Shown here one piece after another: positions 35,673 to 64,000 of a stretch of 64,000 bases of DNA. The notes under the pieces are model-generated. The model searched no databases and was not told where the DNA came from. It worked only from the letters and a program-made list of their open reading frames with translations. How positions within the stretch are numbered: position 1 is the first letter of the stretch; every line of letters begins with the position of its first letter. Source of the DNA: Marsupella aquatica. Taxonomy: Eukaryota; Plantae; Marchantiophyta. Position numbers and translations under genes: made by a program. The stretch covers positions 10,900,184-10,964,183 of the forward strand of contig OZ316895.1 in the NCBI GenBank assembly GCA_973895155.1, given 5' to 3'.

Positions 35673-37553
35673 CCTCGATCTCTGGAATTCCAAGATGCTC
35701 TGCACCGTGCAGCACTCTTGCGCCACACTGAAGTGAAGCTCTAATACACTAGCACTGTTGACAGTTCAGCCCAATTGAGACTATATCCAGTATATTCGTA
35801 TGGATCGACCCCCACGGTTCAGCTCAAGAAACCCTATTCGAGCCATACATGCCTTTACATTTGCTGAAAGGAGTCAGTAGATTCACGTGTTTGGAGCAGA
35901 ATCGCAGAAGAAATCTCAATTTCGAAGTCGACGATCTGGCCCAGACCGTTGAAGAATCTTCAGTGCATTTGGGTAGCTTTGATAAAACTAGTGCCTACAC
36001 TGAAACCATGCTCGGTTTGTATGTTCTTGAGTGATCTCTCTGTCTATCCTTCCATGTCACCCCCACATCAATTTTATTAGGCTTTATCCGCTGTCTGCTT
36101 TTGCTACCCTATCCGGAGCCGTGACGAAGTCGAACATCTACCACAAAGCTTTCAATTTGTTTTGTCCATTCATTTGGGATCATGTTTTATCTGAATGTTG
36201 TCATCATGAAGACCCCATTCTGTGCAAGTCTGTTGCCGTATCAAGGTCAGGTATCACATTCTTGTTGTCCAGAAGGCTCTTGTTGTCCAGAAGGAAATTT
36301 TGCAACTTGATGATTAATCATAGTCGATTCTTTTCCCTTGCAACTTACACTCATTCCATAAAATAAAACAGAATCCAGTGAGGGGACAGGTCACAAAGGA
36401 GCATGATTGGTCGATTCTTAGAAGATCTATGCTTCATTTCTCAAGTATGCCTCACACTCTAAGAAGTATATGCATAGGATGGATATAGCATTACTAAAGC
36501 GTGAAAGGGAATATCAATGAGGTTTGAGTACTATCGAGAGCTCCCAGGGAAGGTCTTAAATGCATACAAGACACTGTTGAACTGAGAGACTTCCCCCCTA
36601 AAGCTGTCTAGACTGCATGGAAATGTAAAACAAGTGTAGAACTTCACTCCTGTAGTTTACTTGCATAGGGCGTGCTCCCCTACCTACTGTACTACTACGG
36701 TGGATTAGCACTCTGGTTAGCTCCCTTAGAGATCTACTGTACGGACCCGGCACTGCTGTTTTCTGGAAGATCATCCTTTCGACCTACTCATGATCTTTCT
36801 CACCTCTCATCTCTGAATTCGCTGGGTTTAATGTTCTAACTTGTGAATCTACAGCCCATAACTCAGGACAGATACTCGCATCGCTGAATCCGCTCAAAAT
36901 TCTTTCCTGACAACTTACTCTGTTTGATCGGCTGGTGGCCACGCTTCCCTTGATGCAGCTGCTCGACTTGCAACTACAGCCGGGCCATTGAACATGCAAG
37001 GACTCTCTAGAGCAAATTTTTCAAAATCAAGTAAAGATTGTTGAAAGTTCAAGAGGCTGTAATTGGGTCACCTCACATCGTCCTCTCTATTGGTTCATCT
37101 GCACGCGACAATCAAACTGGGTTTTTCTGGGCAGCAGAAACAATTAAATCGGGTTCAACATATAAATAGTCGATTACAGATTTATCAGTTTCTCATGACT
37201 CTGGCTCTTCAGCCGAGAAACGAACCAGATCAAAACGTATGTAGTCAAAACAATTATAAGCACCGCAGTAGAACAATTACAGTCCCTATATATAGATCAA
37301 TATGCAACCTGGCTTGCGCTGACTGTCCAGCCCACAAACGCTGTTACAACTGCTTAGCGTCCCAACACAGTTTTTCAGGCGTGGTGGCACATTAGGCCAG
37401 TATGATCAGTCTCATTCGTACTGCAAGACTATGAGCTACTATTCGATTACTTTCAGTACGGAGATACGGAAGGTCTGCGCCCTTCTGAGACCTCTACAGT
37501 ACTATAAACTTGTCTCTACTACAGTACAATAATGTAAACGTTCTGTTTTTCAG

Positions 37554-40500: not shown

Positions 40501-42613
40501 ACTAATTAACAGCAGAATTAGAACCGTGATTGACTGACTATTGTTGTTAAAGCAGTAAAGGGATCCATTTATCGGAAAAGAAATCGGACAATCTGGTCCT
40601 TGACGAACGTTACGAGATTCAAGAACCACACCTGAACAGATGCCCATCCTTTGACTGCTTGGTCGTCGAGGCTATCCGATTCATTGGCCCAGCCCCACAA
40701 AATACGCCTGCCGGTGCTAGTATCGTAGAAAGACTTGGAGGCATAGAATTTCCCATAATCATATCGGTATCCACTTCCTATATCCAGAGAATCGTCATCA
40801 ATAGTGAAAGTATGGGTTTCGGTGGAGTAAGTGCCGATACAGTAGTGATCTTGCAACCAATCCTGCACTCCAGCCTTCAACACGTACTTGTACTCATCTT
40901 GATAGGTTTCTGCTCGCAAGACGGAGTGATCCAGCCCATTTTGGCCTTGCACGGAAACTGGAAAGAAATCGACGCATTCCCACATCCCCAAGTCGATGCC
41001 CTCGCGCAAGTACTTCTCCAGCTCCCAATGGAAAAAATCATGGCTCTTGTAAAGCAAAGCCACGCCATCCCTGGTTCCATCGGCATTATCTCTCTTCGCT
41101 CCCACAGTGAGCCTCCAGAGACCATCTTTCTCGAGCCAAGCAGTCGTGGGGTCTCTAAAGTCATTAGCTTTGATTCCCTTGGGATTATAGAGGATTGGAT
41201 TGGCATCTACTTTCTTCCAATTCCGTAGCAGAGGATCGGAGGGATCGACAGGCAGGGCGAGGTTCTGTGTCTCTTCAAAAGTATTGTTAACCATATTCCG
41301 TGCGCCCGTATAGACGATGGCAGGAGTTCCGTCTTCGAGAATGGTGGCCGAACCAGAAAAGACCCCATCTTCGTCATACCACTTGTCAGGGCTGATAGCC
41401 ACTTCCAGGTGGAACCAGTGAATTAGATCGGTGGACACCGCGTGACCCCAGTGGATATCTATCAAATCGACGCCGTTGGGATTGTATTGATAGAAGAAGT
41501 GGTAGTAACCCATGTAATACATCGGCGCTGCAAATCAATGGAGTTAAATTAAGTGTTAGTGCAAAGAGGAGGGCGCTTTCAGATGCCAAGAAATCTTCAT
41601 TTTCCAGAAAAATTATAGCAAGAATTTTCGGAGCTCGCCAATCTCGACGAAGATATTTCGCGAGTGACATAGTGCAATTGGCGTTGTACATGTAGTTGCG
41701 AGGATGAACGGGGGATGAATGTCCTTCAGGGTTAAGAGGATCATCATGAATTACGACGAGAATCTAGAGAGGTTAGCTAGACTTCAAGATCTCGTTAGCC
41801 GGAGACACATCGTCTCATGACAAAATAACAAAGTTATTTCGCGAATTCCGAAAACCATGAGATAATCCTTGTCGCTAAATGTTACTGAGTTTGCATCCAT
41901 CATGTACCGTCATAGTTTTCCAGTCATTTCTCATTTACGTGGACATTCCATCGAAGTTGCACCGTTTTCAAAGGAAGGGTGGGCCACGCATGAATTGTGC
42001 TGGAGCTCACCATTTGGATCTGTTGACAGCGTGCAGCAATAAGTAGCACCCATCGTCCAGTCCATCAACAGCACGAGACAAAGGCAGCAAGTGCACTCAT
42101 TAGAACGATACCAATAACCTCAATTTGGCATTGAAATCAGCAGGGTGAGGGGAAGTAATAATTACAACAAGTCGAAGAGTAGCGGGCGAACGCCTGAACA
42201 AAATCACAACTGCTTGCTCCCATCGAGAAGGAATCATACGTACCATTCATCCAATTCCTTTCAGGCTGAAAATGGTAGCCCGTGCGTGATGGTATATAGG
42301 ATTCATTGTCGTGCTCCTGAGATTCATCAGCCACGACGTCTGCTTGTTCTACTCCTCTCAGACCGTGTCCTCCTTCACTCTCCCAACGTAAGTTATAAGA
42401 AACAGCTGCCCCGAACAGGAGCAGGGTCGCTGCGATGCACGTCACGAGGTGCACAGTCCTGCCTTTCCGAAGAGCACATCCGGATCGGGATTCATCTGCT
42501 GGTAATCCAGCTAGTGCGACATAATCCGCATTCACTAGATAAATTTTTGAAGCATCTTGTGGCTCACTACCAACAGCGACGAGCAAGGCTGCCTCTACAT
42601 CAGATGTCGCCAT
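37554..42613 (-). CDS. GH32 vacuolar-type beta-fructofuranosidase-like, copy 2 (divergent active-site pocket)
   Basis: Exons 42613-42244, 9-nt mini-exon 42019-42011 (ATCCAAATG), 41527-40632, 40409-40248, 39143-38911, 38301-38211, 37739-37554. Motifs WMNDPNAP, FRDP, WECVD. N-terminus has DVEAALL, YVAL and a TM helix. Confidence 0.95.
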
Positions 42614-45600
42614 TCTTCAATCCGAGAGCCGTCCCCTAGCAATGTGCTCCACCTCTTCATGCACGGCCCATCTACCGTTCTTAAAACTTCTGGGCTGTCA
42701 GTATTATTATGTACACTTGACAAGATGTATGCCTTCACGTTTTTGAGTTTTTCCACCAAAGGAAACCTTACGGGAGACGGGGAGAGGCACTTGTTCTTCT
42801 AAAGTTAGAGTCGTGACAAACGAAAATCTCTTTGCACTGAAGGTTAATAATGCGAATCCCTTGTATGAAGGAGCCAGTGTTGTAAAGTTCGTGACCAATC
42901 AAACACTCCACATCAGCAAAGTTCGTGACAAATTAAACAATTCGCATCAGCAGGAAAAAAACCAGCCCTACATTGCCAGAGTTGTTGTAAAGCCAACTGC
43001 AACCGTTTGCACTCATTATACTTCATTGTAGTATACTGCACAGATACATTCTGAGAGCGAATAATAAGATTCGGTGCAACGAATCCATGGAAGCCCCTTC
43101 ACCGAACTAACGAAGTGTCGGAAGCGGCTCTCTCTTGCCCACAACGTGCGTCCTGCTTGGCCGGTGAAAACCAAGAAATCAATGGCGTACCTTTTATTCA
43201 TAGTGTGGTCGGTGAAACCCAAGAAGTGCCAAACGCTGGCCACCCATTTCAAAATTGCCGTTCTGACTCCTGTACGCAGCTCCTTCCCGCTTCCCAATCA
43301 GTCGTCGTCCACAGGATTTTGACATTCCATCATCTAATAATAATAAAGTCTGCGGAGGGTGATGTCAGTCTCTTGTGCTTACATCAGTACACTGGCAAGC
43401 ATTTGTTCTCTTTTCCATCACCTCGATTGGTCACTGGACGAGAATGAATATATTTCCGCAAGCACAGGATCCGATGGGACGGACAGAAGGTGCACTTGGT
43501 CTTGTTCGTTCCAATGTCAGTCACCTTCCAAACAACGATTTCAGATAGGTTGTTCTGAACACCAGCATTCAATTTCAGTGATCTTTCCAATCAATCTTTC
43601 GATTGCGGATGGGTCAATTGCAACTAATCTATTTCTCTTTGAAGTTTTCGGGTCAACTAGCCAACAGCTTGAATGAATTACTTCCCATCCAACATTAGTT
43701 TCTTGTTAACACTGGAACTCTTGTTTCGGGACATTCCAAGGTAGTTCACCGGATGTAGTCGCTTGGCAAATTAACAAGTGAATTACACTCATCAACAAAT
43801 GAACAAATCCGAGATTGCGAAAGGACAATGTTGGCCTGTTCACAAGGGAGACTTAGTCTGCAGGCCAGAGACCAAGTCCAACATTGAGCTTCAAAACCAA
43901 TGGAGATACTTTGATGACCAGAACATTATTCATTTGTCAATAATGAATACTTTAAAAACCTTCCATAAGCCTGTTTTATCTTTTTATTTTATTTTATTTT
44001 TGTCGAAATGGGAGGAAATACAATTAGACTCCTCCATCCCAATGTGGCAGTTTTTTCGTAGGGAACCAGACCAGGGTGAGCCCCAACTGATCCGACAGGG
44101 AGAGCAGGGCCACAAAGTGGACGACCAGGGGTCGAGGCCAACAAAGTGGATGACCAGGGGCCGAGCAGATATCTTATTTCTTCTTCATCCACCTGCTATT
44201 GCACAAAGTTGGTGCCAAGTGCTGGGAAGTACAGGGCGGGTCCCAGGAGAGCACTAAAGTCACTTCCAGAGAAAGTCTCTCGACGATGCAATGGCCCTCC
44301 AGTCCTCCACCTTATAAAGCCACTCTCACTGGGGATGATATCTTTTGCATCGAAGGCAGAGTGTCATAAAGTGCGTGGAGGCATAAAGTGAAGGCAGAGT
44401 GTCATAAAGTGCGTGGAGGCATAAAGTGATAAAGTGCCTGAAGGCAGAAGTCAGCAGCCACTGATGGTGATTCGACCCGTCTCCCAGTCTCCCAGTCTCC
44501 CATTTTTGTGAGATACTAATCTCCACAAGGTCTAACTTGATACTACACCTTGCTGTAGCCGCCCCTATATACACGGATCCATCCAAGTAAATGATTCCAT
44601 GGACGGAGAACTTTTTTAGTGTTATGGAATCTTGTGATTGGTTGTGCATCACCTAGTGTTTTCCATCGCATATAACACTACAATACGCTGCCTTACAAAA
44701 TGAGAAAATATTCTAATTGATCTTCGCTCTCCATTGAAGACTGATTATACTAGAACAGAAAAGTCACACTTTCAATTCCCCCTCTACATACACCCCCTCC
44801 AAGGTGTGTGGACCATTTGTGTGGGTGTCATGTAATGGTGGGAGTACTGGTTATTGTTGGGCCTCTGGCTAGCGGCTTTGTGGTCCTGATTCAACCCACT
44901 CTCTTTCTTGGTATGGTTCTTGTCTGAACCTCAAGAATCTTCCCCCTAGTGGGCTACCCTACAGGGTGCATATTCCAAAGTAGAAAGTCTATCCTCTGTT
45001 GGATGGGTCAACTTTAGTTATTCAAGGCAAAAAAAATTAAGAAAAATAGTTGTAGTTTGGTTGGGATGCCATGTTGGGTGAAATTTTAGTCTCGAGGGTT
45101 GCTTACTCGAAGAAATCCTTGAGACTCAACCTCAAAGGATGAGACAAATGATTATCTGTGAGGTGTGAGACACATCTTGGGAGGGAAAGAATCATCCTTT
45201 CCGTTTATAATCTTACGTATATACTCCTCAAAAGACACACCAAAATCTGTCCCATTAAAAGGTGCCATTAATATGTGTTCATTCGCTCATCCAGTAAGAA
45301 GAAAAACCATTTCTAAAACGAGAAAATGTCCTTCTTCCTAGGTCCATGTGTATCCTTCCCCTTAAAGCAGTCTTAATCCTCTCCTCCACCCTAGAAAATG
45401 TAAAACAAATCAAAAACTACAACACAAGGTTGTGCCTTTTTATACCATGGTATTCTCTCAAATTTGGCGGGGCATTTTGGGTTAAAACAAATAGAATTAA
45501 ATAAACCAAAACATGAATTCTTCTATTGAATGTGAAACTAGTATGTGGGTTCAGCTCAATTTTTTTAACACATTGGTAATATTATATTTGTTTATTTTAC

Positions 45601-48656: not shown

Positions 48657-50166
48657 AGTTGCACACTATATCATAAGAGGCATGTGTGCTTGGAGAGGTA
48701 GAACCAAGGCTCATTGTTATGGAGCCACTTGAGAGATAGGGAGAGCTTACACTGTGGAGACTCGGTATAGTTGACGGGCTTAGAGTTCAGTAAAGCTCTC
48801 TTGTGTGTTCCCGTGGACGTAGCCTCAAGGAGGTGAACCACGTATCTCTTGTGTCGACTATTGTGCGTTGGATGGTTCATGGGCTTGCCGTTGCGATCGT
48901 CGTCTATACTCAACAATTGGTATCAGAGCATGCTTGGGAGGTGACGTGTGTTCATGACGGGATTTCATTACGGTTTTTCCAGCGTTGAGTGTCGATGGAT
49001 TTCCCGGAGTTCCGTCGCATGGAACTTGGAGTTTATGGGCTCAACGGATAGATCGGGGCAAGAGCTTTCTAACGGTGTGAAGAAATCGCTGAACGGAGCT
49101 CGTGGTGCAGAGAGATCTAAGTTTTCGTCGTTCTGGATTTTGTGAAGAAAGTTGGCAATCGACTCGGAGGGAGAAGCGTCAAGTGTTTTGACTCAACAGA
49201 GAGATTGAGGCAAGACGATTGTTTTGAGTCCGGGATTGGCTCTTTGATGCAAAAAGGAAGGCTAAGCAAAATCAATTACCTTGTTGGACTTGGTGACGGC
49301 ACCAAGTGCAATTAATCAACATTCGTTGTTGACAAGGTACCATTTTTTCTCTTTGAAAAACTGATTCGAAATTGGCTATGGCAATTGAGAGAAATCTGTC
49401 ATCTTTACCAATTTTTTTCTCCCTCGTTCTTTCCTCGTTTTGGGTGCTTCTTATATCGATCTTCACCATCTCGGAGTTTAGTTTCCAAATCTGAAATCAG
49501 ATCTTGATTTCGTCAAAACCCGAGTGAGATATCTTGCGTTTGGTGTCGAGGGGTACATTCTGCCGTGTGTATTTTCTGTGCGCGCGACCAGATTTCGACG
49601 ACGAAGGGTGGTGGGGGGTTTTGGGGGTTCGAGGACAGGTGTCAGCCCCTCGATTGTTCTTCCAAAATTCTCACAGGGCCTGTACAAGGGTCATAGAATA
49701 TTCCAAAAAACCAGAGAGCTATTTTTTGACCGTCCGACAAAGATTTCATCCGCCGAACGGTAACTTTTTTGGTTATTTTTTGGCGAGGTCGTAGCCATTG
49801 AAGTTGGCAACGCGGCGCACCAATCACATCGTAATTCCGACAACGGGTTATACTTGGTATTTCGGTTATTCCCTGAGGTGGTCAAAATGGGGGAGTTTCC
49901 CAAGGTTTTACCCACCTCGACCGAAATTTGAATAACTTTTCCGTCAAATTTCGATTTTGATTTCGGTTTTCAGTATTGGACTCCTAGCTTTGTGGGCTAC
50001 GCGGCGGTGTTGAGTTTTGAGTTTTTTGAGAAGTTGTGAAAAACAACAATTTTTGTGATTTTCTCATATGAGTGATTCGGAGGAGTTTTTCGAAGACGTG
50101 GAACTTGAAGCACGAGGATCACCGCGGCGGTTTCAGGGGTAGAGAGAGGAGCAGGAGGAAGAGCAC

Positions 50167-51089
50167 GTGACACCGATACCATCACCGGTGCGGCGTGTGG
50201 TGGAGGAAGCAGTACTACTACCGGAGCTCACGATAGTGCCAAAGAAGAAGACGGGGACTTTCAAGCTTGGGGGACCCAAGTATGAAGTGACAAAGTATGA
50301 TGGGCGCTCTGACTACTTGCTATGGGAGAAGCAGGTGAAGGGATGGGCCAACTGTTGAGCCCTCGTGAAGACGATGTTGATGAGAAACAATGGGACCGCA
50401 TGCAGGAGCAGGGAGTGTGGTGTGTTACACTCTATCTCATGCCTCCCATCATCAAGCAGTTGGGTGCACATAAGGATTGCATGTCCTTGTTTTCGGAATT
50501 GCAGAGCAAGTATCACCACAAGGAGTTGTCGAACCGGCTCTACACTTCCTACAAACTGATGAGTTTCAGGATGAAGGAATCCGGTACGAAGTTGCAAGAC
50601 CATGTGGATGCTTTCAACGACATGGTCGTTGACTTGGAAAACCTTGGGGAGACTTTGAATGATGAGACGAAGGCTCTGCAGCTTCTTAGTTCATTGCCTC
50701 CATCTTACCAGTCCCTATCACGAGTGTTGTTGCATCGTGATAGGGATACCATTTCATACAATGACGTGGTAAGTTCTCTGCTTAGTGATGATCTTCAGCA
50801 GAAGATGCACATCACGTCACAGCCTTCATCATCTGGTGCTGCCCTCAATGTTAACCGTGGGAGGAGTATGCAGCGACCAACTGGGGACCGTAGAACCCAG
50901 TTTAGATCTAAATCCAGATCTAAGTCCAAGGGTAAATCCCCTCAAAGGAGGTAGGTGACATGTTGGAAGTGCAACCAAGTTGGACACTTCAAGCGAGACT
51001 GTAAGGGAAAGGCAACAGAAACTTCATCGGCAAATGTGGCTAGGGCTGATGGAGAAGCTGATTTACTCAATGATGAGTATGTTTTATGA
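50167..51089 (+). pseudogene. gag: copia gag (frameshift ~50345, TAG at 50952-50954)
   Basis: KYDGRSDYLLW, L.SFRMKE..KLQDHVDAFN, LLSSLPPSY and zinc knuckle CWKCNQVGHFKRDC at ~50961-51002. Confidence 0.88.
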
Positions 51090-51134
51090 AGTCAGGGGTA
51101 TGCCCTGTGCACGTCATCTAGGAGAGCAGATGAT

Positions 51135-52234
51135 GTGTGGATTCTTGATTGTGCTTGCTCTTTTCATATTTGTTACATTCGTGAGTTTTTCAGTTCTTAC
51201 TCTGTTTCAAACGGTTCAGTTTTGATGGGAAATGATCACTCCTGTCAAATTGAGGGAATTGGGTTTGTGAAGATTCAAATGTTTGATGGCGCTGTGCGCA
51301 CAGTATCCGGAGTCAGGTATGTACCTGGCATGCGTAAGAATCTGATTTCACTTGGTGTGTTGGATTCAAATGGTCATCAATGGAGCGTTATTGATGGTGA
51401 ACTTCAAGTCAGGTCGGGAGAGATAGTGATTTTGAAGGGGAGTAGACAAAAGAATTTGTATGTGTTACAGGGCAATACTGTATGTGGAGAGGCCAATGTA
51501 ACCAAGTCTCACAAGGAGATGACTGAACTGTGGCATTCACGGCTAGGCCACATGAGTGAGAAGGGTTTGGCTATCTTACGGAAGAATGGACTCATTTCTT
51601 ATTTGCAATCTTGTAAATTAGAGTTTTGTGAGCATTGCATTTTTGGAAAGCAGCATCGTCGTGCTTTTGGTGTTGGAACTCATCGTTCCAAAGCGGTTCT
51701 TGAGTACATACATAGTGACGTGTGGGGTCCATCTCCGACTCCCTCACACTCTGGAAAGTTGTACTATGTATCATTTATTGATGATTACTCAAGATTTGTG
51801 TGGATTTATTTCATGACGCATAAGTCTGATGTCTTGTCCATTTTTAAGAAGTGGAAAGCCCAGGTGGAGAATCAGACTGGAAACACGATCAAGTGTTTGG
51901 ATACAAGGGTGAAGAGTCTGAGGTCAGACAACGGCGGGGAGTACACTTCAATGGAATTTGAAGAGTACTGTTCAGAACAGGGGATAACTCACCATCTCAC
52001 CACAGTTTATACTCCGCAGCAGAATGGTGTCGCTGAGAGGCTCAATCGGACACTGTTGGAGCGGTCACGGAGTATGTTGAGCCAATCAGGTTTACCACAA
52101 GAATTTTGGGCAGAAGCTATCAATACTGCAGCTTATTTGGTAAATTTTTCTCCTTCTAGTGCTATCAATTTCAAAACGCCGTTTGAGATGCGCTATAAGC
52201 GGCAAGCAGACTATCATGGCTTGGTAGTTTTTGG
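51135..52234 (+). pseudogene. pol: copia pol fragment: protease, GAG-pre-integrase, integrase core
   Basis: WILDCACSFHI, LWHSRLGH, CEHC, HSDVWGP, LRSDNGGEY, QQNGVAER. Truncated at LVVFG where LTR sequence begins. Confidence 0.93.
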
Positions 52235-52357
52235 AAGCTCTCTTGTGTGTTCCCGTGGACGTAGCCTCAAGGAGGTGAACCACGTATCTCTTGTGTCGAC
52301 TATTGTGCGTTGGATGGTTCATGGGCTTGCTGTTGCGATCGTCGTCTATACTCAACA

Positions 52358-52490
52358 TTGCCCTCCCCGCAAAATCTTGCTCTCTCCCCGCAAAATCTTG
52401 CCCTCTCCTCGCCATCTTGCCCTCCCCGCAAAATCTTGCCCTCTCCTCGACATCTTGCCTTCTCCTTGACATCTTGCTCTCGCCTCAAAA
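52358..52490. repeat. Short-period (~20 bp) C/T-rich tandem repeat, the copia target site (other half 48395-48440)
   Basis: aaaatcttgccctctcctcg(a/c)catcttgcc units lie on both sides of the element. Confidence 0.8.
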
Positions 52491-53404
52491 TCTTTCGTGC
52501 AACGCACGGGCATGGGGCTGGTTTTATAATAATAGAATAGTTTAATGTTTTGAGAATAGTTTATTAGTCTTGAATGTGCAAGTGAGTTTTGACATTATGT
52601 TTATGACTTTTTTGGTGTGTATTGAAGGAATATGTTTGAATAAGGCCTAGGGGGAGCTACACTCAAGTGGCATACAAGATATTTTTTTAAGATTTCTCAT
52701 GGTGACTACCATCAAGGTAAATGTTTATATCAGTGCATGTTTTTATGACTAGAATTTGTGTTTATTTGTTATTTGTGAAGTGACTTGATATTTTGTCCAT
52801 TCAATTGACATGAGCAATTTTGTGTGAGTTTGTAGACAAATTTTGGCATCACTAAGAAACAACCCCAAGCTATCATCTAAGCTTGAAATAGAGGTTTGTT
52901 TCTCTCTGTATTCCTCGTTGAATAAATGTGATTGCTAAAGTTGTTCACTCATAAAGCTAAATTAAGCATGGAATCTATCTATACTTTAAAATATAATTTT
53001 CACACATGTAATATTTATCATAGTAGTATTTATTTTCAAATGAATTATCAGATTAGCTAAAAATTTGTAGCATTATCATATATGGATGTGCAAATATTAG
53101 TATATTAATTAGTATAAAAGCTTTTATTTGAATCAACACAATAGATTTATGCAATCTTAACAAAACTATAAGTAATTGTAATTTGCAATTTATTTCTAGA
53201 AAGCAATGCTCTTAGTGGATAGATGAGTCTTTTGTAATCTTGTTTCATATTGTTATGGTTATCTTAGGGCATTACATATTAAGAAAGTGAAATTTGCCTT
53301 TGTTGGATTCCAAAAATGGAGAAGTTAGCTCTTTGTACCTAAAATTATTCACTTAAGTTTATTATCAATCGAGTACTCTAATTATAAGGTCCATATCATA
53401 TTAT

Positions 53405-54090
53405 TCAAGTTAAGGCAATAAACTATAGTACACACATATGCAGAGGTCGGTGTAATGTTTGAATTGTAACTTCAAAATCAATATAAGGTTACAAGTTAAG
53501 GCATTCTGGTACACACATTCGCAAGGGTCGGTGTATTGTTTGACCCAGTTGTAACTTCAAAATCAATATAAAGTTACAAGTTAAAGGCATCCTGGTACAC
53601 ACATCTGCAAGGGTCGGTGTACTGTTTGACCCCAATTGTAACTTATAAAATCAATATAAGGTTACAAGTTAAGGCATTCTGATACACACATCCGCAAGGG
53701 TCGGCGTATTGTTTGACACCATTTGTAACTTCAAAATCAATATAAAGTTACAAGTTAAGGCATTCTAGTACACACATTTGCAAGGGTCGGTGTACTGTTT
53801 GACCCCAGTTGTAACTTATAAAATCAATATAAGGTAACTACAAGTTAAGATATTATGGTACACACATCTACAAGGGTTAGTGTACTGCTTGACCCTAGTT
53901 GTAACTTCAAAATCAAAAATAGGTTATCCGGGAAGGTTACAAGTCAAGGCATTTTGGTACACACATCTACAAGGGTCTTTAAAATGTTTGATCCCATTTG
54001 TAACTTCAAAATCAATAAGGTCATAAGTTAATCAATTGGTACACATATATTCAAGGGTTTGAGTATTGTTTGACAAGTTGTAACTTAAAA
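53405..54090. repeat. ~87-bp tandem repeat x ~8 with two internal inverted repeats
   Basis: Unit caagttaaggcattctggtacacacatctgcaagggtcggtgtactgtttgacccagttgtaacttcaaaatcaatataa(a/g)gtta. Confidence 0.9.
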
Positions 54091-55235
54091 ACAAGGTTAT
54101 AATACTCTAGAGTTTACATTCCAAAAATCTAACATTCAATACCACTTCAAAACAATATTTTCATAACTAGACCCTTCCACATGCTAACATTGTAATAATC
54201 CTTGCATTAAACTTCAATGTAAGTTTCCCATGACCAAACCCTTGCTTATTCACCCCACCTTCCTCATGATCTTCCACCCCTACTTATATTTCTAATAATT
54301 TTCCCATTTTACTTGTATGGAGGTTGAGAGAATGCTTTATATGTTGCTTACCAAGCTTATTTATTTTATTTTATTGCAATTAAATTGCCTTTTAAAATAT
54401 ACCTAATACCCAAGCTGGAGATTTTTCAAATATTGATTTTTTTCAAAGCCGACCTACTGCCCAAGTTCTTCTTATTCCTTAGGCACCATAAAGGGCATAA
54501 TCTAGTTATGTCAACATCCAAGCATGGATAGGTTTAGTTTAATAGAGTTGTTTGTGTCGAGAAGTGACATTACTCTTCACACGAGGCTTCACATACAAAA
54601 GTAACATAGATCATTGGATTCAAAACATCTAATGGTGTAAAAGTTCTTTTTGAGCTAAGAGACCACAAGAGTATTCACACACAAAATGAATCTGGATGGT
54701 TGGAGTCATAACATCTAATGGTAGGAAAGCTTATTTTTAGTTGAGAGGCCACACGAGCCTTCACACGAGTCTTCACACACAAAATGGATGTAGATGGTTG
54801 GATTCAAACCATCTAATGGCTGAATATTTACAGGGTGATGTGGAATTTTGACAGAATTTTCAGATTTACAGAAATCTCTAACTGGACCTGTAATAAATAG
54901 TGGATGCACTATTTTCAAAGGAAGAAGAAACTGTAAGCATTTACTTTGCAAAGATCAAGTCTTCCCTTGTACCATCGATCCATAGGAAGTGTCTTTCAAA
55001 TCTGGCGGGGCGTTTTGGGTAAAAACACCAAAATATAAATAATTAACCAAAACAATAAATATATTTCTTGACAAAAATAATAATACATGACACAAAAAAT
55101 AATACATGACACAACAAATAATACATGACACAAAACAATAATACATGACACAAAAAATAATAATAAGACAAAATCTGAAAGGTAAATTCAACCATATAGC
55201 AGTTTCAAATATAACAGCATCTTTTGTGCAGCACG

Positions 55236-55488
55236 CAGGATTGAACTTGTAATATATCAGATATAGAGGTTCACTAGGATCACTTAGAACAATTCTGTTA
55301 AATTACGTTGTCCACTATTGCCCACCCCTTCTCTCAAGAGAAAAGTTAGACATAAACATGCAGGATTGAACTTGTAACATATCAGATATAGAGGTTCACT
55401 AGGATCACTTAGAACAATTCTGTTAAATTACATCGTCCACTATTGCCCACCCCTTCTCTCAAGAGAAAAGTTAGACATAAACATGCAG
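55236..55488. repeat. 124-bp near-perfect tandem duplication
   Basis: gcaggattgaacttgtaa...agttagacataaacatgcag occurs twice. Confidence 0.9.
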
Positions 55489-55734
55489 AATTAAATAATT
55501 CCTCTCCAGAAAATGAGTTAAATGCTCGGTCTCAACCCTTTTGGTCCCATATAGTTACTGTACTTCAGTACTTGTTTACTTCCTGAAAGTAACAACTTGG
55601 CTCAAATATCTCAATGGTATATACCATAGACCTTAGGGTGCCCGGTTTGACCTTGCCCGTCAAACTGGGCGTTTGAGAGCGGCAAATTGACAACCCGGCA
55701 CCCGGGTTCGGAAGCAGTCCGGGAAAGGAAACGT

Positions 55735-56170
55735 CCGGTTCGGGGTTCGGGTTCGGGAGGAGGTTCGGGAGGAGGTTCAGGTGGGGGTCCGGGTGACTAA
55801 TCGGGTCCGGGTCCGGGGCGGAGGCGCTCGGTGGGGGCTCGGGGTGGGGTCCGGGTGGGGTTCGGGTCCGCTCAGTGGGGGTTCGGGGTGGGGTCCGGGT
55901 GCGGCTCGGGTCCGGGAGGAGGAGGTGCGGGGGGTTCGGGTGGGGGTCCGGGTGGGGTTTGGGTCCGGGTCCGAGGGGTTCGGGTTCGGGAGGTACGGGG
56001 GGTTCGGGTGGGGTCCGGGCCCGGGGCGGAGGCGCTCGGTGGGGGTTCGGGGTGGGGTCCGGGTGGGGTTTGGGTCCGGGAGGCCGGGGTGGGTCCGGGT
56101 GGGGATCGGGGTTCGGGGTCCGGTTCGGGGTTCGGGGTCCGGTTCGGGGTTTCAAAGTTCGGGGTTCGGG
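55735..56170. repeat. G-rich subterminal repeat array (GGGTTC/GGGTCC/GGGTGG)
   Basis: Dozens of short GGG-containing units, followed by a (GGA)n tract at ~56305-56402. Confidence 0.9.
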
Positions 56171-56184
56171 ATTGAGGCTCGGAG

Positions 56185-56410
56185 AATTAGGGTTTCGCGA
56201 TTTAGGGTTGGAGGATGGGGCCGGCCGGGAAAGGGTCGGGGGCTCGGGAGAGGATAAAAGGAGGAGATCCCTCCTCTCCCTCCTCATTTTCGGTTTTGCA
56301 GAAAGGAGGAGAGGAGGAGAGGAGGAGGAGGAGAGGAGGAGGAGGAGGAGGAGGAGGAGGAGGAGAGGAGGAGGAGGAGGAAGAGAAGAGGAGGAGGAGG
56401 AGGTAAGTGT
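56185..56410 (+). promoter_or_regulatory. Putative promoter/5' UTR of the cargo kinase transcript
   Basis: Telo-box-like TTAGGGTTT at ~56187, a GGA-rich leader, and a consensus donor AG|GTAAGT at 56403. A T-rich intron-like tract follows, with a candidate acceptor ttttag at 57004. Confidence 0.45.
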
Positions 56411-56511
56411 TTGGTTTTGGTTTTTATTTTTGATTTTTGGTTTGTTTTTATTTGTTTGTGTTTTGTTTTGTGATTTTTTAAGTTTTTTTTGTGTTTTAAA
56501 CCTTAACCTTA

Positions 56512-56907
56512 GAGCCAAATGGAGGGATATAAAGAAACACTTGTACGTGCACGCTTTGAGCCTCGGTTCGGTTTGCGATACTCCGTACAAGAATTTCTTA
56601 ATATCACCTTAACAATTTAGTCTCCTTTGTTCATTAAGTAAAACATTTGCGGAGATAGAGGAATCCATGTACGCATGCTTAGAGTTTCGGCTCGGTCTGC
56701 GATACTTTGCATGGATACCACGATTCACCGAGAATGTTTTTACTTGAATTACAAATGAGTGTTAAGTTATAGACACCAAATCACATATGTCGAAGCAGGA
56801 ATATAACAACTTTGAAAGAAAAGAACACTTTTGTGCGCATGCTTTGAGCGTCCACTCGGTCTGCGATATTTCACAAGTGTTGTCTTTCTCTTTTATTGTT
56901 GTTATAT
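56512..56907 (+). ncRNA. Array 1: three pre-miRNA-like hairpins sharing a 33-nt apical module
   Basis: Modules GCAYGCTTWGAG.(6).YTCGGTYTGCGATAY at 56549-56581, 56673-56705 and 56837-56869. Each is flanked by mutually complementary arms of ~35-45 bp that differ between copies. Confidence 0.7.
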
Positions 56908-57095
56908 AGAAAGGTAATTAAAATCATGTGTGCAATAAAAATACATAATGCATGGGAGAAATAAACCGGGAAAAGATAATAACAATACGACTTGTAATTT
57001 TTAGGTTGGTCGTTGAATCCTTATTGGAAGGATTTTATTTAAATCCCGGTAAGATCTTGTTCCTCCCTCACATATTCCTTTTGTGAAGGGAAAAC

Positions 57096-58750
57096 ATGGT
57101 CATCGAAAATTTTAGTTTAGAGTATAGGCAAGTGTTGGAGATGATCACAAAATATGTGAATGAGGGATATGAGCCAAATCTTGTTGCTCTGGATGCATTG
57201 AAGAACGCTCAAAACACTCTCGAACATGCTAGGAATTCTAGCAAAGTGGCCGGGAAACGAAAACGGAAGGGGGCAAACGAAGAGGCAAAACAGGTTCGAC
57301 ACAATGTGGTAGTGTCGATATGGAAAGAGATACTTTATCGCTACACTCAACCGAAACAGTATGGGGTGGACGGGTTCGAGAGGGAGTTCACAAGACACGG
57401 AGAGAAAGGATACAAGAACTTTCTTGGTGAGATAACCCGTTGTATGCGGGAAAGTGTACAAAAGGAGGATAATTTCACACGAGAGCAAATGAAGTCATTT
57501 GAAGATGAAACTGAGAAACCGGGAGGATTTCTGGAAAATTTGGCACTCAACTTGGAGAAGCATGTTTGGGATAATTTGGCAGCCAAAGTGGAAGAGGGTG
57601 ACACTACATTGCTTGGAAACCCCGGGATGTACACACACAAGAGAGAATTGCTAGTGAAGTGGAGTAAGGAGTTGGCAATGGCAAAATCTGATAGCAATGT
57701 CAAATATGCTAACGAGATTGTGCACTTTGGGGATGTCAGCATCAAAGTGCTCAAAAAGGAACATGTCCATCGCGTGTAGTTCCAGAGGTTAGGAGTATCC
57801 ATTTTCTTAAACCTGAGCAGGTGCACAACACACGTCGCATTGGGAAAGGAATCCAAGGAGATGTATACACTTGTCGTATATTACATTGTCCTCTCATTCC
57901 CGTCAACGTGACCTTAGTCGCAAAGCGGTTCAAGGATGGAGACCAGCATAAGAGACGAACTGACGCATTACAAGAAGTGCTTATGGGAGGACTAAATCAT
58001 AAGGGAATCGTTGGAGCTCTTGCGTTGACTATTGAGGATCCGCCAAAATTTATTTACGATCACTATAATGGAGGTGACTTGGGTAGCTTTATTGATAAGT
58101 GCGGCATATCGTCAAAGAGCAAGGGGAAGGCACAGATCACGACGGACCTTGATTTCAAGTTTATTTCGGAGAAGAAACTCTTGTTGGAGAATCGGTTGGG
58201 AATCGCCTTGGCTTTGCTGAAGACACTGCAATACTTGCATGAGCATGATCGATTTCATTGTGATCTTCACTTTGGAAACATCCTTCTTCATTTCGATCAC
58301 GAGCACGATGTGGCTATTAAGGTGTATGTTGGTTTATGTGATTTTGGCTTGTCTAAGCATAAATCACAGTGCAAATTACCAGCTAATCGGATGTGGCCCA
58401 CAGCAACAGAAAAAGCAGCAACATACCAAAAACAATTTCCACAGTTGGCTCCGGAGCTTGTTCAACCTACCCCTGTCGAGTTTAGTGAAAGTACCGATAT
58501 ATATGCTTTGGGGAATATTTTTGAGACATTATTGACAGAGAATTGGGATGGAATGTCTAAGGGTTCACGGTTTTTGGGGAGGGGTTGGAGTGCACAAGTG
58601 CATGGCCCCAAATTGGATATCATAATCCGTGAAATGATGGCCACGGATGCCAAGAAAAGAATGGATTGTGCTTTTTGGAGTTTGAAGATAGTTCGAACGT
58701 TTCCAGATTGCACATTGCATTTGCACAACAGTCCATATCTTAGAGATTAG
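57096..58750 (+). CDS. Protein kinase (TKL-like) with unknown N-terminal domain; two ORFs joined by an intron or a frameshift
   Basis: 57821-58750 has IGKGIQGDVY, VAKRF, E in helix C, HCDLHFGNILL, DFG, APE and DIYALG, so catalytic residues are intact. This ORF lacks an ATG. ORF 57096-57779 (ATG) joins it via a phase-0 intron (57735 or 57747 to 57820) or a frameshift near 57773. Confidence 0.85.
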
Positions 58751-58937
58751 AGATTAGGGTTTACACAATTTTGTAAAGGTCACCTTAACAATTATATGTT
58801 TATTCATTGTATGTCAATTACAATGTTCTGCATTTTGTTGATAATATTCTATCAAACTTTGTCGTGAATGCCCAAAATTGTGCTAAATGTGTTTGTACAT
58901 TGTCAAATATCGCAGACCTTTTGTACACATCGCAAAC

Positions 58938-60896
58938 ATGGGACGATGGGAATTGTCTTCTGATGATGAAGACAAAGAGTTCATGACACAACATCTTACC
59001 ATGCAAGATGGTCAAGGATCCTATTGTGACGATGAAGCTCTTTGTAATAATGTGTTGGATAATCTTACAACCATTGGCATTCACTATGAGGCTAAACCCA
59101 AGGTTGATGGAACACCGGCGCCAAACACAAGAAGATGGGAAGATGAGGGTATGAAGGATGAATGGAGTATATTAACGCCCAATGTAAATCCTCCCCATGA
59201 CGAATGGGCCATGAATGCAAAGGAATTGGAGATGTTGATGCCAAAGAAAGACTTTTGGCCATTAGCACAACAAGTTTTTCATGATCCGGATCTTTGGGCA
59301 ACAAGATCATGGGCGCAAGAAAAATTCACCATGTCCAAAGTAACACATGCAGGTGTTAAATCACATTGGCAGCAACGATATCGAGAGTTTGCTCCACACA
59401 AAGCCCAAACGAAAATGAGTTCCGTTTACCCTCCTTTTATCCGATGTCTGATTGCTGAATTCATTCTCAAGTGGAAGGTGGATTACTGTTGGGAAAACAG
59501 TGCTGGCAAGCTGACTCATCAGGTGCATCCATCAGTGGTTGCGATTGCAACGAATAGGAATACAACTATTGCAAAGGACCCTTCAATGGAGACTTCCAAC
59601 AAGGGATCCAAAAGAAAGCTAGATGACACTGGGGAGGGATATGCGCATGAGAAGGGGAAAGCGGCTGTACTTCCTCGAGTCTCCATGCCTGACCGTGCAG
59701 CACCACCAACCAATGTGGAGTCAATGCACACCAAAAAACCAATCCTTGTAGGTGTTGGGAGTAGAACTCCACATGCAAAGAACAACAATGTTACTGATGC
59801 TAACAAGGATAAGTTCAACCTGCACAACATATGCAAGAGCTTGGGGGCAGATGTTGCAGAGGTGATTGAGACAAATCTCCGCACGAAGTATGTAGTGGAG
59901 CTATGTGAATGTGGCAGCATCGAAAAGTTCAAGTCACAATTGCAACAAGCTGATATAAAGATGAGATCACTTGAGAAGAAGCAGAACGAGCCGACGACCA
60001 ATTCGGAAGTGATGTTGTACAAGTGTCAATTGTTTGACAAGATGGAAGAAATCAATAAGCTGACAAAACAACTTGCTGAAAAAGAGCGTCAATGCAATGA
60101 ACTGGCACGACTTGAGGAGAAGGACAAGATCATTAATGATCTTAAAAGTGAACTTGCAACGCAAGCAATCATCATATCAAATCTTCACGAAGAGGTGCAA
60201 GAATTTAACAATGGTGCTTTGGGGATGAGGTCAAACAAAGGGCAAGGTGAATTATCGTCGCCAAATTTTGTTAACATGCAAATCATAGATCCTACAGGGC
60301 ACAGCAACCTTTTTCCAGATGTGGAGGTTGACGCGGAAGGTATTGATAGGTTTTTTGATAAGTGGAAAAAGGATGAAACTATGACAGCATTTGTTCGTGA
60401 AAAGGATGACAAGTGTACTTGGTGCCTATATCCTTGGGGCCCTGAATCTGTTTCCATGTTGGGAACCTGCGGTCATATATGGCATCATGCTTGCTTGTCT
60501 AAATGGTTGAAGAAAAGCCGAAAATGTTGGTGTCGCACACCATTTCATGAACGCGAGTATGAGCAACGAGGATTGTTGAAGCAAATGCCATCAATGGAGA
60601 CTCAACAAAACACTGAAGATATGACTGAAGATATGACTGAAGATACTATACCGGCGATGCAAATAGATGAAACTCCCATTGAACATTTCACAATCAATGA
60701 ATATAATTTGTCAGATGGGGAATTTGACAGGTTGTTATTCAGTGGTCGACTCGATGAGTGGAAACAATATGCGGCAGCCAACCAGCCATCAATAGATGAG
60801 CAAAATTTGCAACGATCCATTCGGCGCCATCGACGACGTCAACAACAGGCAGAGGTGAAAATAGAAGCTGTTGACAATAACAACAAAAGGAACTAA
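58938..60896 (+). CDS. Coiled-coil + RING-H2-like protein (putative E3 ligase)
   Basis: Uninterrupted ~650-aa ORF from ATG 58938, with a heptad-rich segment (KFKSQLQQAD..EINKLTKQLAEKE..). RING-like motif CTWC..CGHIWHHAC..W....CWC, with the last Cys pair shortened. Confidence 0.8.
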   Translation: MGRWELSSDDEDKEFMTQHLTMQDGQGSYCDDEALCNNVLDNLTTIGIHYEAKPKVDGTPAPNTRRWEDEGMKDEWSILTPNVNPPHDEWAMNAKELEMLMPKKDFWPLAQQVFHDPDLWATRSWAQEKFTMSKVTHAGVKSHWQQRYREFAPHKAQTKMSSVYPPFIRCLIAEFILKWKVDYCWENSAGKLTHQVHPSVVAIATNRNTTIAKDPSMETSNKGSKRKLDDTGEGYAHEKGKAAVLPRVSMPDRAAPPTNVESMHTKKPILVGVGSRTPHAKNNNVTDANKDKFNLHNICKSLGADVAEVIETNLRTKYVVELCECGSIEKFKSQLQQADIKMRSLEKKQNEPTTNSEVMLYKCQLFDKMEEINKLTKQLAEKERQCNELARLEEKDKIINDLKSELATQAIIISNLHEEVQEFNNGALGMRSNKGQGELSSPNFVNMQIIDPTGHSNLFPDVEVDAEGIDRFFDKWKKDETMTAFVREKDDKCTWCLYPWGPESVSMLGTCGHIWHHACLSKWLKKSRKCWCRTPFHEREYEQRGLLKQMPSMETQQNTEDMTEDMTEDTIPAMQIDETPIEHFTINEYNLSDGEFDRLLFSGRLDEWKQYAAANQPSIDEQNLQRSIRRHRRRQQQAEVKIEAVDNNNKRN

Positions 60897-61401
60897 AACC
60901 AATAGTCTCTACATTTTGATGTTATTTTCATGTAGTTACTATTAGAGACATTTTGTTAAAATAGAAGCGGCATATCCTCTTTGACAATTATTTTCAACTT
61001 GTAATTGGTAAAGAGATTTTGGAGTGACATTACATTGCATATCTCGTTGAGTACATATATTTTTCATTGGGGGCATGGCGTCGCCTTTTGGAGAATGTGT
61101 ATTTTCGTAAGAATATTCCATCCTCCAATCAGCCATAGGTTTTGGAAGCATATTGTCGGGCTCACAATCATATTTTTGGACAAGTATGAGGAAAATAGAC
61201 GTGATGAGAGACGGTAGCACAGTGGACTCAGGTACTGATCCTTCTCTGAAATCATTTCCAAAAGGAGATCGTGTAGCACAATGAGTTCAACAAAGTCAAC
61301 ATCGCAATGGTTTTAGCCGCCCAAGTTGAGAATGATTTTGTAGAAGGATGTATACCTAAGTCCACTCACTTTTCCTGTCTTTCATAATTTTTTCCGCTAT
61401 T

Positions 61402-62727
61402 GCTGCTACGGCCAATGACATTCATGCACATGCGAACCGAGGCCAACGCCTACTCCTTTGCCCACCGCAAAAATGGGCCCTCATTACAACTTGAAGTTGA
61501 ACGGAGTTTATTTGAGTACAAGAGAAGTTCTGAAAGCAAATGCACTCTCAGGTCAAATTTTCAGGTCCTTCGAGCAAAAAATTACTGAGTATGTCATCGA
61601 TCCGTTGGTTTCACAACTTCTCTCGTACTCAAATAAACTCTGTTCAACTTCAAGTAGCGTAGCTGCTACGACCAATGACATTCATGCGCATGCAAACCGA
61701 GGCCAACGCCTCTACATTTGCCTACCCCAAAAATGGGCCCTGATTAGAACTTGAAGTTGAACAAAGTTTTTTTCATTAGGAGAAGGTTTATTCAAGCAAT
61801 GGCACTCTCAGGTCAATATTTCAGGTCCTCCTGACTTTGTTATTATTGAATATGTTCGTGCTCCGTTGCTTGAATAAATCTTCTGATAATGAAATGAACT
61901 GACCAATTACTGGAGTACGGCTGCTACGGCCTATGACATTAATTCGCACAATTGCATGTTTATATCCTCTCCTTTCCGAATTCCAATTCGAGCTTGGACA
62001 TCCTCTCGTCAGCTGGTCTCCACCATTGCAGTTGCTCTTCACGCAAACCAAGATAGCAGTCTCTAGAATCCTCGAACCTATTTTATTTCAATGCATCATT
62101 CATAGTGTTTGAGGAATCCAGAGGTTCGCGTGAGGAGCAACTGAAAGGGTGGAGACCTGCTGACGAGAGGGTGTCCAAGCTCGAATTGGAATTCGGACAG
62201 GAGAGGATATAAATGGGTGAACTTTGACTTGAAATTGGTGACTGTATTTTGCGTCTGCATATCAATTTGGTGACCGATCTTGCGGAATCCCCGTGACCGT
62301 GTCTGATCATCATCATGACATTGCTCTCCTTGGCCACCAATGGGCCCTCATTACAACTTCAAGTTGAACGGGGTTTATATGATTATGAGAAGGTTACTGA
62401 TTATGTAGGCGATGTGTTCATTTCACAACTTCTCTCATAGTCATATAAACTCTGCCCAACTTCAAGTAGTGCAGCTGCTACGGTCAACGACATTCACCCA
62501 CCCCAAAAATGGGCGCTCATTACAACTTCAAGTTCAACTAAGTTTATTTTATTACGAGAAGGTTTATTCAAGCAATGACATTCTCAGGTCCAATAATGAG
62601 GTCCTCTCGACCTCATTATTATTGAATATGACGGTGCTCTATTGCTGGACTAAATCTTCGCATAGTGAAATGAACTAACCAATTAATGGAGGGGGCTAGT
62701 ATGGACTACGGCTGCTATGGCCAACAA
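61402..62727 (+). ncRNA. Array 2: five long fold-back hairpins separated by a ~21-nt direct repeat
   Basis: Repeat GCTGCTACGGCCAATGACATT variants at 61402, 61662, 61920, 62474 and 62711 (partial at ~62315). Stem arms: 61489-61539/61605-61655, 61765-61802/61863-61900, 61959-62049/62123-62213, 62356-62395/62427-62467, 62541-62576/62641-62676. Confidence 0.72.
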
Positions 62728-62963
62728 CAAGGTACTTTGAAATAGTCAGTGTTGGAGATTTGGAAAACATGTTGCGTTGGTGTGTCTCTATGGCATTCTC
62801 AAATGCAAATACAAATAAATTATTCAATCATTGTACAATAATAAACACACTGCAAGACAATACAATCATGTTACAAAAAATATAATTGTTTATAATTTTT
62901 TCTATGTCAGATACGACAATATAAGAGTAGCAACACTTGATATTATCCTAATGAAAAGATGCT

Positions 62964-64000
62964 TCAAGGCTGTGAAGAGAAATTTTGTGCATTGTTGTTA
63001 AGATTTTTGCACAAAAGCGCATTCCACTCGTCTTGTTTGTCGCCCCAACTGAGTGGATCACGATTGTGTGACTGAACATTGTGCGATGTTTCTTGAAATG
63101 ATGATATTCCTCGAAACCCACCAAGGCCAATAGGCCTGTTCGACGTATATGGATTCATGACACTTGGCCCTGCATACGCATTCAAGGGTGGACCTGCATG
63201 GTGTTGCCAGTTTGCATGTGGGTCGTTTGAAGTTTGACCTTCATGATTGTTGTATCCATGAAAAAAGGTTGATGTCCTTCCATTCGTCGGATGCCCTGCT
63301 GTGCTTGTGCGTTGCTCGTTGAAATATGGTCTGCTTGTGTCAACATCATTCGCAAAGTTCGACCAAGGTGACCTTGGTTGGGAAGGCATCACAAAGTTTC
63401 TGTCCAGTGATGCATCTTCCTCGTCTTGGATTTGCGATTCATCAATTGTAGGATACATCTCCAAATCCATTTCATTCTCCCATTCCTCTGCAGTAGTGAT
63501 GTCTGTATCTGGTGGAATACGAGTCAAGAACTCACTATCCTTATCTAGTGAAAATCCGTGTAGCAATTCATCAGCATCATCAATTGTATCATAATCTTCG
63601 ACATCTTCTTCACCACGTGTTGCATCGTACTCTTCATTGCTGCACAACTCCATGGAGATAGGTCTAGGTCCATCATTTGTTCTTCTTCTTTGGTCATAAC
63701 GTTCATATATAAACGTATGCGGGTTTCGAACATTTGTGAGCCCTTTCTCTACCCTCATGTTTGTAAATACAAACACCAAATCTTTTGCTCGATCATTTGT
63801 CAATCGATTGCGACTTTTGGAATGTATAAATCCATACGAACTCCAGTTTCGCTCGCAAGCTGATGCGCACACTTTTTGGTGTAAGATTCTTCGCGCCAGG
63901 ATTCTCAAATGTTTATAATCTGCACCATACGCATGTCACCACTCTGCTGGACTGACATTACCTATACTTGATTGGGCGGCTCCCATCGCTATTGATGTGT
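62964..64000 (-). pseudogene. hAT transposase C-terminus (dimerisation domain) with premature stop
   Basis: SPAEW*HAYGADYKHLRILARRILHQKVCASACERNWSSYGFIHSKSRNRLT...DLVFVFTN matches the hAT dimerisation consensus. The WW motif is broken by TGA at 63936-63938. An acidic tail follows. Confidence 0.9.

Follow-up and report, generated by a model that had tools for sequence, protein, structure and literature searches.

A kinase gene, a RING-like gene and two hairpin arrays apparently carried by a hAT transposon of a leafy liverwort

A plant cut-and-paste transposon is generally viewed as a transposase between two ends, with VANC, Kaonashi and miR820 as the known exceptions. A 64,000-nucleotide stretch of the liverwort Marsupella aquatica (contig OZ316895.1, positions 10,900,184 to 10,964,183; hereafter the window) raises the question of whether a hAT element can also keep enzymes and structured RNAs of its own, and to what end. 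The right-hand part of the window holds, in this order, a hAT-like terminus, subterminal repeats, a first hairpin array, a protein kinase gene, a RING-like gene, a second hairpin array and a hAT transposase gene (Table 1). This is the order that had been read in a first-pass annotation made from the letters alone, and it holds. Together, these parts apparently form an undescribed cargo-bearing plant hAT in which kinase and RING-like genes are maintained, the hairpin arrays are conserved, and a hairpin-derived guide matches one of the element's own genes with strong statistical support.

Both flanks of this series point to the hAT superfamily. The minus-strand open reading frame (ORF) at 62964-63935 contains PF05699 (28.8 bits against a cut-off of 21.4), and its product is 70% identical to P0029 over 169 aa and 53% identical to P0183 over 356 columns, in an alignment that reaches the last residues of P0183. 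With PF05699 here and DUF659 in close full-length homologs (P0029 and P0030 have both domains), this is a hAT transposase gene, the catalytic core of which lies beyond the window. It runs convergently to the cargo and carries the stop codon that the first-pass annotation had reported, at 63936-63938, where homologs have Trp. Nine in-frame bases that are present in near-identical contigs from public runs X1 and X2 are also absent from the window transposase tail at 63613, which is a private change. At the other flank, the terminus-like sequence TAGGGTGCCCGG, which includes TAGGG, begins at 55634, and the motif [TC]AGGG[TA]GCCCG occurs this once in the 64 kb. TAGGG fits the hAT terminal motif YARNG, as defined in the available text of PMC3014272, at this one end, and it is common to the ends of Ac, given as C/TAGGGATGAAA in the accessible part of PMC3260210. 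G-rich repeats span about 500 bp just inside the terminus, and 13 of the 16 minus-strand ACCCG[GA]A motifs of the whole window fall in 55752-56100, a cluster of short subterminal repeats of the kind that hAT elements have. The tetramers CCCG, CGGG, ACCG and CGGT reach 32 and 23 per 500 nt in these repeats and do not exceed 9 in any of the remaining 26 bins of 50001-64000. No second cluster was found in that interval between the transposase stop and 55634, so 55634 is the first hAT-like end downstream of the stop; the boundary and the repeats proposed at first reading were thus both borne out.

Public-run contigs, compared over 56500-64000 in four of seven runs, indicate that the parts belong together. 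In X1, five near-identical pieces (29 differences in 4730 nt; depth 184-229) span the stretch from array 1 into the kinase, the kinase itself, its stop to the RING gene, the RING 3′ flank to array 2, and array 2 to the transposase, and three diverged pieces (array 1 to kinase, RING, and transposase) stand at depth 16-19. In X2 the corresponding depths are 360-426 for near-identical and 36-50 for diverged pieces, and further diverged families exceed 1000. Depth is therefore flat across the parts at about ten times that of the diverged contigs in two runs, with no single-copy baseline, and diverged contigs themselves form bridges, X1 record 2 joining array 1 with the kinase and X2 record 12 the kinase with the RING gene. 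The deeper X2 families show amplification of relatives under either depth reading. Single-copy host genes, the case that the first-pass annotation had set against its own proposal, are not what was found: depth suggests several copies, and kinase relatives in Calypogeia fissa are spread over eight contigs. We consider it very probable that the cargo module lies inside the hAT element, and all of the parts would then share one pair of ends. Low-depth near-identical pieces also occur in X5 and X6; these are possible contaminants and carry no weight here as evidence of transfer. Among the public runs no RNA holder was listed, which counts neither for nor against expression.

The cargo genes appear to be maintained. 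The comparison yielded 40 best-supported variant rows and 1091 further rows; 22 of the 40, those in the kinase and RING ORFs, were scored, leaving out 6 in the transposase and 12 in non-coding sequence, so that the sample is biased towards the best-supported variants. Seven of the 22 are private to the window, all of them non-synonymous C>T or G>A changes and five of them at CpG, and the subfamily differences are synonymous in 11 of 15. The variants look like those of a methylated copy that is decaying while the family it came from stays under purifying selection. Over 320 codons, the window kinase and that of a distant metagenome locus, L002, differ with a proportion of non-synonymous differences (pN) of 0.28 and of synonymous differences (pS) of 0.75, the latter being saturated.

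The kinase gene encodes a helical N-terminal domain with a KRKR basic motif, followed by the kinase domain. The catalytic motifs, described at first reading as intact, are all there (GxGxxG, VAK, HCDLHFGN, DFG and APE, as in the eukaryotic protein kinase fold), and the catalytic loop HCDLHFGN is of the non-RD type with Lys replaced by His. Because full-length homologs run to 540-553 aa, the upstream frame 57096-57779 can be assigned to this gene as its N-terminal part; the change of frame near 57743 lies upstream of the kinase domain. Contigs with one extra base at 57743 have depth 242/305 in X1 and 798/2477 in X2. The gene is intact in the family, with an unbroken frame in most contigs compared, and either broken in the window copy or mis-assembled there in a short A-run. 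The earlier statement that the cargo ORFs stay open is thus right for the RING ORF and not for the kinase, of which the reported 345-codon frame is a part. A basic motif, K[KR]x[KR], is present in the N-terminus of the window kinase and of six of the eight homologs checked; we take the basic motifs of the two cargo proteins to be nuclear signals.

The relatives of this kinase are few. A profile search of 1.84 billion representatives returned 16 proteins at E<=1e-30 and 67 at 1e-10, grading into generic kinases, and among the 30 clusters looked up those with a named organism were from Calypogeia fissa, plus one distant protein from Riccia fluitans. Calypogeia fissa is the nearest named relative (83-85% identity over about 200 residues) and has ten kinase-family proteins, one of them full length, in two subfamilies. 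A search of viral and prokaryote contigs found no relatives, and a search of metagenomes gave two loci from 116 candidate stretches. The structural model has a predicted local distance difference test score (pLDDT) of 60; a fold search with it returned generic kinases only, and none for the N-terminal domain. Two further observations concern kinase relatives: the relative L001 has an in-frame stop inside the Gly-rich loop (L001:388-390) and is a further decayed copy, and P0051, P0058, P0062, P0065 and P0054 form a second, distant family of 300-470 aa with an HxDLH loop, one member of which comes from Riccia fluitans.

The second cargo ORF begins 187 bp past the kinase stop, close to the 190 bp first estimated for a coiled-coil/RING protein. 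It is 58% identical to P0028, a full-length homolog of 632 aa, and its nearest named relative is again from Calypogeia fissa (50% identity). Its assignment as a RING protein stands in part: the pattern C-x2-C...C-x-H-x2-H-x2-C is present and the closest solved relative is RNF165/ARK2C (E 8e-6), but the finger scores just below the Pfam cut-off (26.8 against 27.3 bits) and its final metal pair is C-x-C, versus the C-x2-C expected of C3H2C3. The protein is a putative E3 ligase. Its N-terminal domain is conserved and uncharacterised; in the Atlas it matched unnamed clusters at 0.92-0.93, gave weak SWIM/MULE leads at 0.87-0.88, and found nothing else. Pfam returned no matches for the cargo proteins beyond the kinase and RING families.

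The two arrays had been called small-RNA-like, and their folding agrees with this. All eight hairpins fold more stably than every one of their 60 shuffles, as do stable hairpin precursors, with z scores of -4.7 to -6.9 for the three hairpins of array 1 and -7.1 to -23 for the five of array 2; the plus strand gives the more stable fold in six of the eight. The hairpins of array 1 keep the sequence of the apical stem and differ in their lower stems, and the 3′ arms of all three hairpins share the core UCGGU(C/U)UGCGAUA(C/U)U. Across five hairpins of the array-1 type, 18 of 36 pairs are altered on both sides (0 of 500 shuffles), as counted on a structure derived from the same five sequences, and compensatory changes affect 7 of 45 consensus pairs among the four related units of array 2 (61487-61657, 61765-61900, 62350-62472 and 62530-62682). 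Each of these units has TGGGC[C/G]C before it and GCTGCTA[CT]G after it. The lower stems of array 1 and the array-2 hairpins are well paired. Rfam offered no family for the hairpins, the three matches at E<=1 all being far under gathering scores. Within array 2, TGGGCCC frames units at 61474, 61734 and 62341; GCTGCTA[CT]G has five copies between 61402 and 62711 and none elsewhere in the window; both motifs could be processing or promoter signals; and the unrelated, near-perfect hairpin of 259 nt at 61957-62215 has more public-contig matches than its neighbours.

What the arrays might act on was approached by scanning every 21-mer of the eight hairpins, on both strands, against both strands of the window, which gave 33 sites with a score of 5 or less in 64 kb. 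At the top of this ranking (score 3.0), the 3′ arm of hairpin 3 is complementary to 58899-58919, which lies 19-39 nt ahead of the RING start codon; the orientation is the one that a sense-strand RNA directed at mRNA would require. None of 1000 shuffles of the spacer reached this score (mean 8.55), and in 28 tests of array, strand and part the match between array 1 and the RING start was the sole extreme, the next lowest value being 51/1000. The pairing uses the core common to all three hairpins. Its 9-mer complement, ATCGCA[GA]AC, occurs on the plus strand of the 64 kb at 28272, 58909 and 58929 (three, with 0.35 expected), and of these the two that lie no more than 30 nt from the RING ATG correspond to the variants in hairpins 2/3 and in hairpin 1. 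The duplexes have energies of -26, -23 and -18 kcal/mol at the first site and -10 to -14 kcal/mol at the second, the AAAC of which may simply be start-codon context. It is rather probable, on these grounds, that RNA from array 1 regulates the RING gene by pairing. The first-pass annotation had envisaged a mobile module of protein effectors and guide RNAs, perhaps serving anti-silencing, host manipulation or conflict between elements; the module is apparently multi-copy and linked to hAT, but the sole target found is the element's own RING gene and not a host gene.

For array 2, no significant target was found within the element, and an aim at the kinase coding sequence, suggested by inverted repeat I14, was rejected when 48 of 150 shuffles equalled it. 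A different kind of sharing involves TCACCTTAACAATT, which is common, in direct orientation, to the base of hairpin 1 (56604-56617) and the kinase-RING spacer (58780-58793); its 10-nt core is found nowhere else in the window and 12 nt are kept in L002:38-49. The idea that the spacer is a degenerate array-1 hairpin was dropped, as a covariance model recovers the five input hairpins only, with the next match at E 0.11.

The distant locus L002 has an intact 547-aa kinase, 57% identical to that of the window, and upstream of it the same array, with a hairpin spacing of 123/164, compared with 124/164 in the window. Its hairpins favour the sense strand by 21-31 kcal/mol through 8-12 G-U pairs, which argues for RNAs rather than DNA palindromes. 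The hairpin core differs from that of the window and the fold is kept. About 400 bp after the kinase, a DUF6729 gene (E 2e-11) takes the place of the RING gene; the three-gene order is therefore not fixed across the family, since kinase and array 1 also stand beside a different gene, and the arrangement suggests that the kinase and hairpin cassette also rides with another transposon group. The DUF6729 gene (L002:2527-5822) comprises two long ORFs, is probably split by an intron, and by eye seems to have transposase-like acidic motifs. It has no NCBIfam match, the term DUF6729 was unmatched in a full-text literature search, and the first 337 aa of the second ORF have no PDB match.

The reading that we favour, tentatively and at slightly less than an even chance, is that of a hAT element with a kinase, a RING protein and two arrays, in which array-1 RNA turns down the RING protein and the cargo proteins protect the element against silencing. 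On this view the window would contain a copy, slightly decayed, of a hAT DNA transposon that is present several times over in a leafy liverwort. An inward promoter at the left end would drive a leader holding array 1 and the kinase, and the array-1 hairpins would be processed into small RNAs that, by pairing at the RING start, damp the product of that gene, probably at translation because the site adjoins the ATG. The kinase and RING proteins, going by their basic motifs, would act in the nucleus and help the element against host silencing; that they serve counter-silencing rather than killing seems to us an evenly balanced proposition.

Several points weigh against this reading. One element end only lies within the window, the far end being beyond 64000, and no partner terminal inverted repeat, target site duplication or empty site was seen. 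The element would be present in about ten copies, but contig depth is not copy number, and the tenfold ratio treats the diverged contigs as single copies. In Calypogeia fissa, the single RING homolog shares its contig with none of the ten kinase proteins retrieved; no transposase was among the homologs retrieved from that species. The RING protein model is poor (pLDDT 37), the covariation of array 1 was counted on its own source sequences, and the runner-up target site, which lies in the host flank, scores 3.5, near the 3.0 of the best. Plant microRNA (miRNA) duplexes have few mismatches and only small asymmetric bulges, and the conserved array-1 core spans a 6-nt bulge beside the loop, which is atypical for such a duplex. 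Finally, L002 has an array but no RING gene, and its 5.8 kb contain no complement of its own hairpin core, so that co-evolution of guide and site is not shown.

A bolder and less likely account is that liverworts harbour DNA transposons with a virus-like circuit, in which guide RNAs from a portable kinase and array cassette, shared by hAT and another transposon group, silence the element's own RING ligase, as a latency switch or an RNA antidote, and a second, faster-changing array provides guides against the genes of the host or of rival elements.

That a toxin is paired with an RNA antidote is unlikely. Carriers would be shielded by array 1, spores or cells without the element after its loss would suffer from the RING protein or the kinase, and different hairpin cores would give each subfamily its own specificity. 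With some ten near-identical copies, if that estimate is right, nearly every spore would inherit the antidote and any drive would be weakened, although guide and site do lie on the same element and liverworts are haploid-dominant with spore tetrads. The change of hairpin core between the window and L002, with the fold retained, would suit such specificities, but no likeness to any known toxin was found for the cargo proteins, and the window copy keeps its RING ORF open while its kinase is broken. Hairpin-RNA-based drive as such is known in maize (PMC11390486, available text).

We regard as improbable the proposal that kinase and array 1 are a portable cassette, or a non-autonomous element of their own, found inside different transposons, such that the hAT association is secondary and the genes are maintained as cargo without a role in hAT mobility. 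L002, with its array and kinase before a DUF6729 gene and no RING gene, fits this proposal, as do the transposase-like and RING-like contigs of X5, which are far deeper than the kinase-like ones, and a fungal hAT is described as having captured a whole host gene (PMC6710886, in the text available). The evenness of depth from part to part in X1 and X2, the bridging contigs and the lack of internal termini in the element argue otherwise, and the match of array 1 to the RING start implies that both genes evolved together in this family.

Little credence is likewise given to action in cis or at the DNA level, whereby long-range pairing in one pre-mRNA would loop out the kinase and select a splice acceptor ahead of the RING ATG, or a shared protein-binding DNA motif would co-regulate both genes. 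Against this stand the stable local hairpins in which the core is locked, with their miRNA-precursor-like length and G-U strand bias, and the pairing of the site with bulged bases, left unpaired by the 5′ arm of the same hairpin. In its favour are the bulge, atypical for a miRNA, the CAG within the site (a possible splice acceptor), the sharing of TCACCTTAACAATT by array 1 and spacer and by nothing else in the window, and a 187-bp spacer that is short for a terminator plus a promoter. Ordinary host kinase and RING genes beside an unrelated hAT, with the hairpins as foldback or miniature inverted-repeat transposable element (MITE) debris, are very improbable and already largely refuted: although both ends of the element are not seen and a depth of about 200 could in principle be single-copy in a deep run, the Calypogeia fissa copies are dispersed and mostly truncated, named relatives outside liverworts are absent among the clusters looked up, related X2 families have several times the depth of the near-identical one, the four related array-2 units show the element's baseline depth (hence no separately amplified MITE), and CpG-type decay is private to the window copy.

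Table 1. Coordinates and main characters of the features of the element within the window.
Feature	Position	Strand	Description
Candidate left 8-bp target site duplication	55626..55633	.	ATAGACCT, the 8 bases preceding the terminus
hAT-type terminus	55634..55644	+	TAGGGTGCCCG, fits YARNG; end 3′ of the transposase
G-rich subterminal repeats	55690..56170	.	GGGT[CT]CGGG type; putative transposase-binding region
Promoter-like leader (predicted from sequence)	56254..56512	+	TATA-like GGATAAAAGG, GAG-rich exon, GTAAGT donor 56404, T-rich intron to ~56512
Hairpin array 1	56519..56903	+	three ~97-nt hairpins: 56519-56614, 56643-56739, 56806-56903
Non-RD protein kinase gene	57096..58750	+	~550 aa, lineage-restricted; frameshift near 57743 in window copy
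Site complementary to array-1 core	58899..58937	+	58899-58919 plus weaker second site (to 58937), directly before RING ATG
RING-like ORF	58938..60896	+	652 aa; N-terminal domain ~70-210, coiled coil ~305-425, RING-H2-like finger ~490-535
Hairpin array 2	61390..62735	+ (strand inferred from folding energy)	four related units and one unrelated hairpin
hAT transposase gene, 3′ part	62964..64000	-	dimerisation domain and conserved C-terminal extension; runs past window

The sequence to the left of the element has features of its own. Tandem repeats lie at 53428-54091, 55069-55173 and 55235-55492, the types being 86-bp units that contain inverted repeats, units of 19 bp and a duplication of 125 bp. 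Further upstream are a Copia-type gag and integrase fragment (50313-52466), two paralogous genes of the GH32 invertase/fructan type on the minus strand (18765-21902 and 40572-42616) and a DUF2256 gene (35274-35765).

No published description of a hAT with a kinase, a RING protein and hairpins was found in the full-text literature, a scope outside which most subscription papers and supplements fall, and repeat libraries or the supplements of genome papers may hold the family. If the favoured reading is true, the element would make available, in a haploid plant, a compact system for testing the ways in which a transposon evades silencing or enforces its own retention, and liverwort annotations may include transposon cargo among their lineage-specific kinase and RING "gene families". 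Among known systems, the hAT superfamily (Ac/Ds) is similar in its dimerisation-domain transposase, TAGGG end and subterminal repeats. Cargo in hAT elements elsewhere is internal filler (PMC3260210) or a captured gene, as with histone H3 in Pseudocercospora fijiensis (PMC6710886), according to the available text of each. Whereas the cargo of known hAT elements is filler DNA or inactivated copies of host genes, here there are two lineage-restricted genes with signs of purifying selection and structured RNA arrays, and none of the sequences retrieved is an evident host parent of the cargo.

Two other plant systems carry more than a transposase. The available text of PMC3459959 describes miR820, a miRNA in rice CACTA elements aimed at the host methyltransferase OsDRM2, which likewise places a miRNA-like hairpin in a DNA transposon; here, in contrast, a hAT has eight hairpins in two arrays, and no target was found for them other than the RING gene of the element itself. 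VANDAL VANC and Kaonashi ULP1 are accessory genes of non-TIR (terminal inverted repeat) Mutator-like elements, VANC being anti-silencing (PMC13317346, text available), and they are alike in being protein genes kept inside a plant DNA transposon; the word hAT is absent from the main text of that paper as available. Unlike theirs, the transposase here is hAT and not Mutator-type, and the cargo is a kinase and a RING-H2-like protein.

Outside plant transposons, an analogy of working, with no homology claimed, is provided by herpes simplex virus, a parasite whose clustered small RNAs lower its own RING ligase. The viral miR-H2 is antisense to ICP0. It belongs to the LAT miRNAs and lowers the RING E3 ICP0 at the protein level, ICP0 itself countering nuclear repression (available text of PMC3492847). 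That is an animal virus, whereas here the guide would come from a hairpin core of its own, located 2 kb upstream and on the same strand. Teosinte Pollen Drive, wtf and Spok are selfish loci that use hairpin-RNA or toxin-antidote logic; Spok driver genes reportedly ride on a large transposon. In Teosinte Pollen Drive a hairpin RNA is the toxin and a host gene the target (PMC11390486, in the part available), and no drive phenotype is known for the present element. If it functions as proposed, this hAT, by retaining a kinase, a RING protein and eight hairpins, would extend the exceptions that VANC, Kaonashi and miR820 represent to post-translational enzymes and to self-regulation by RNA.

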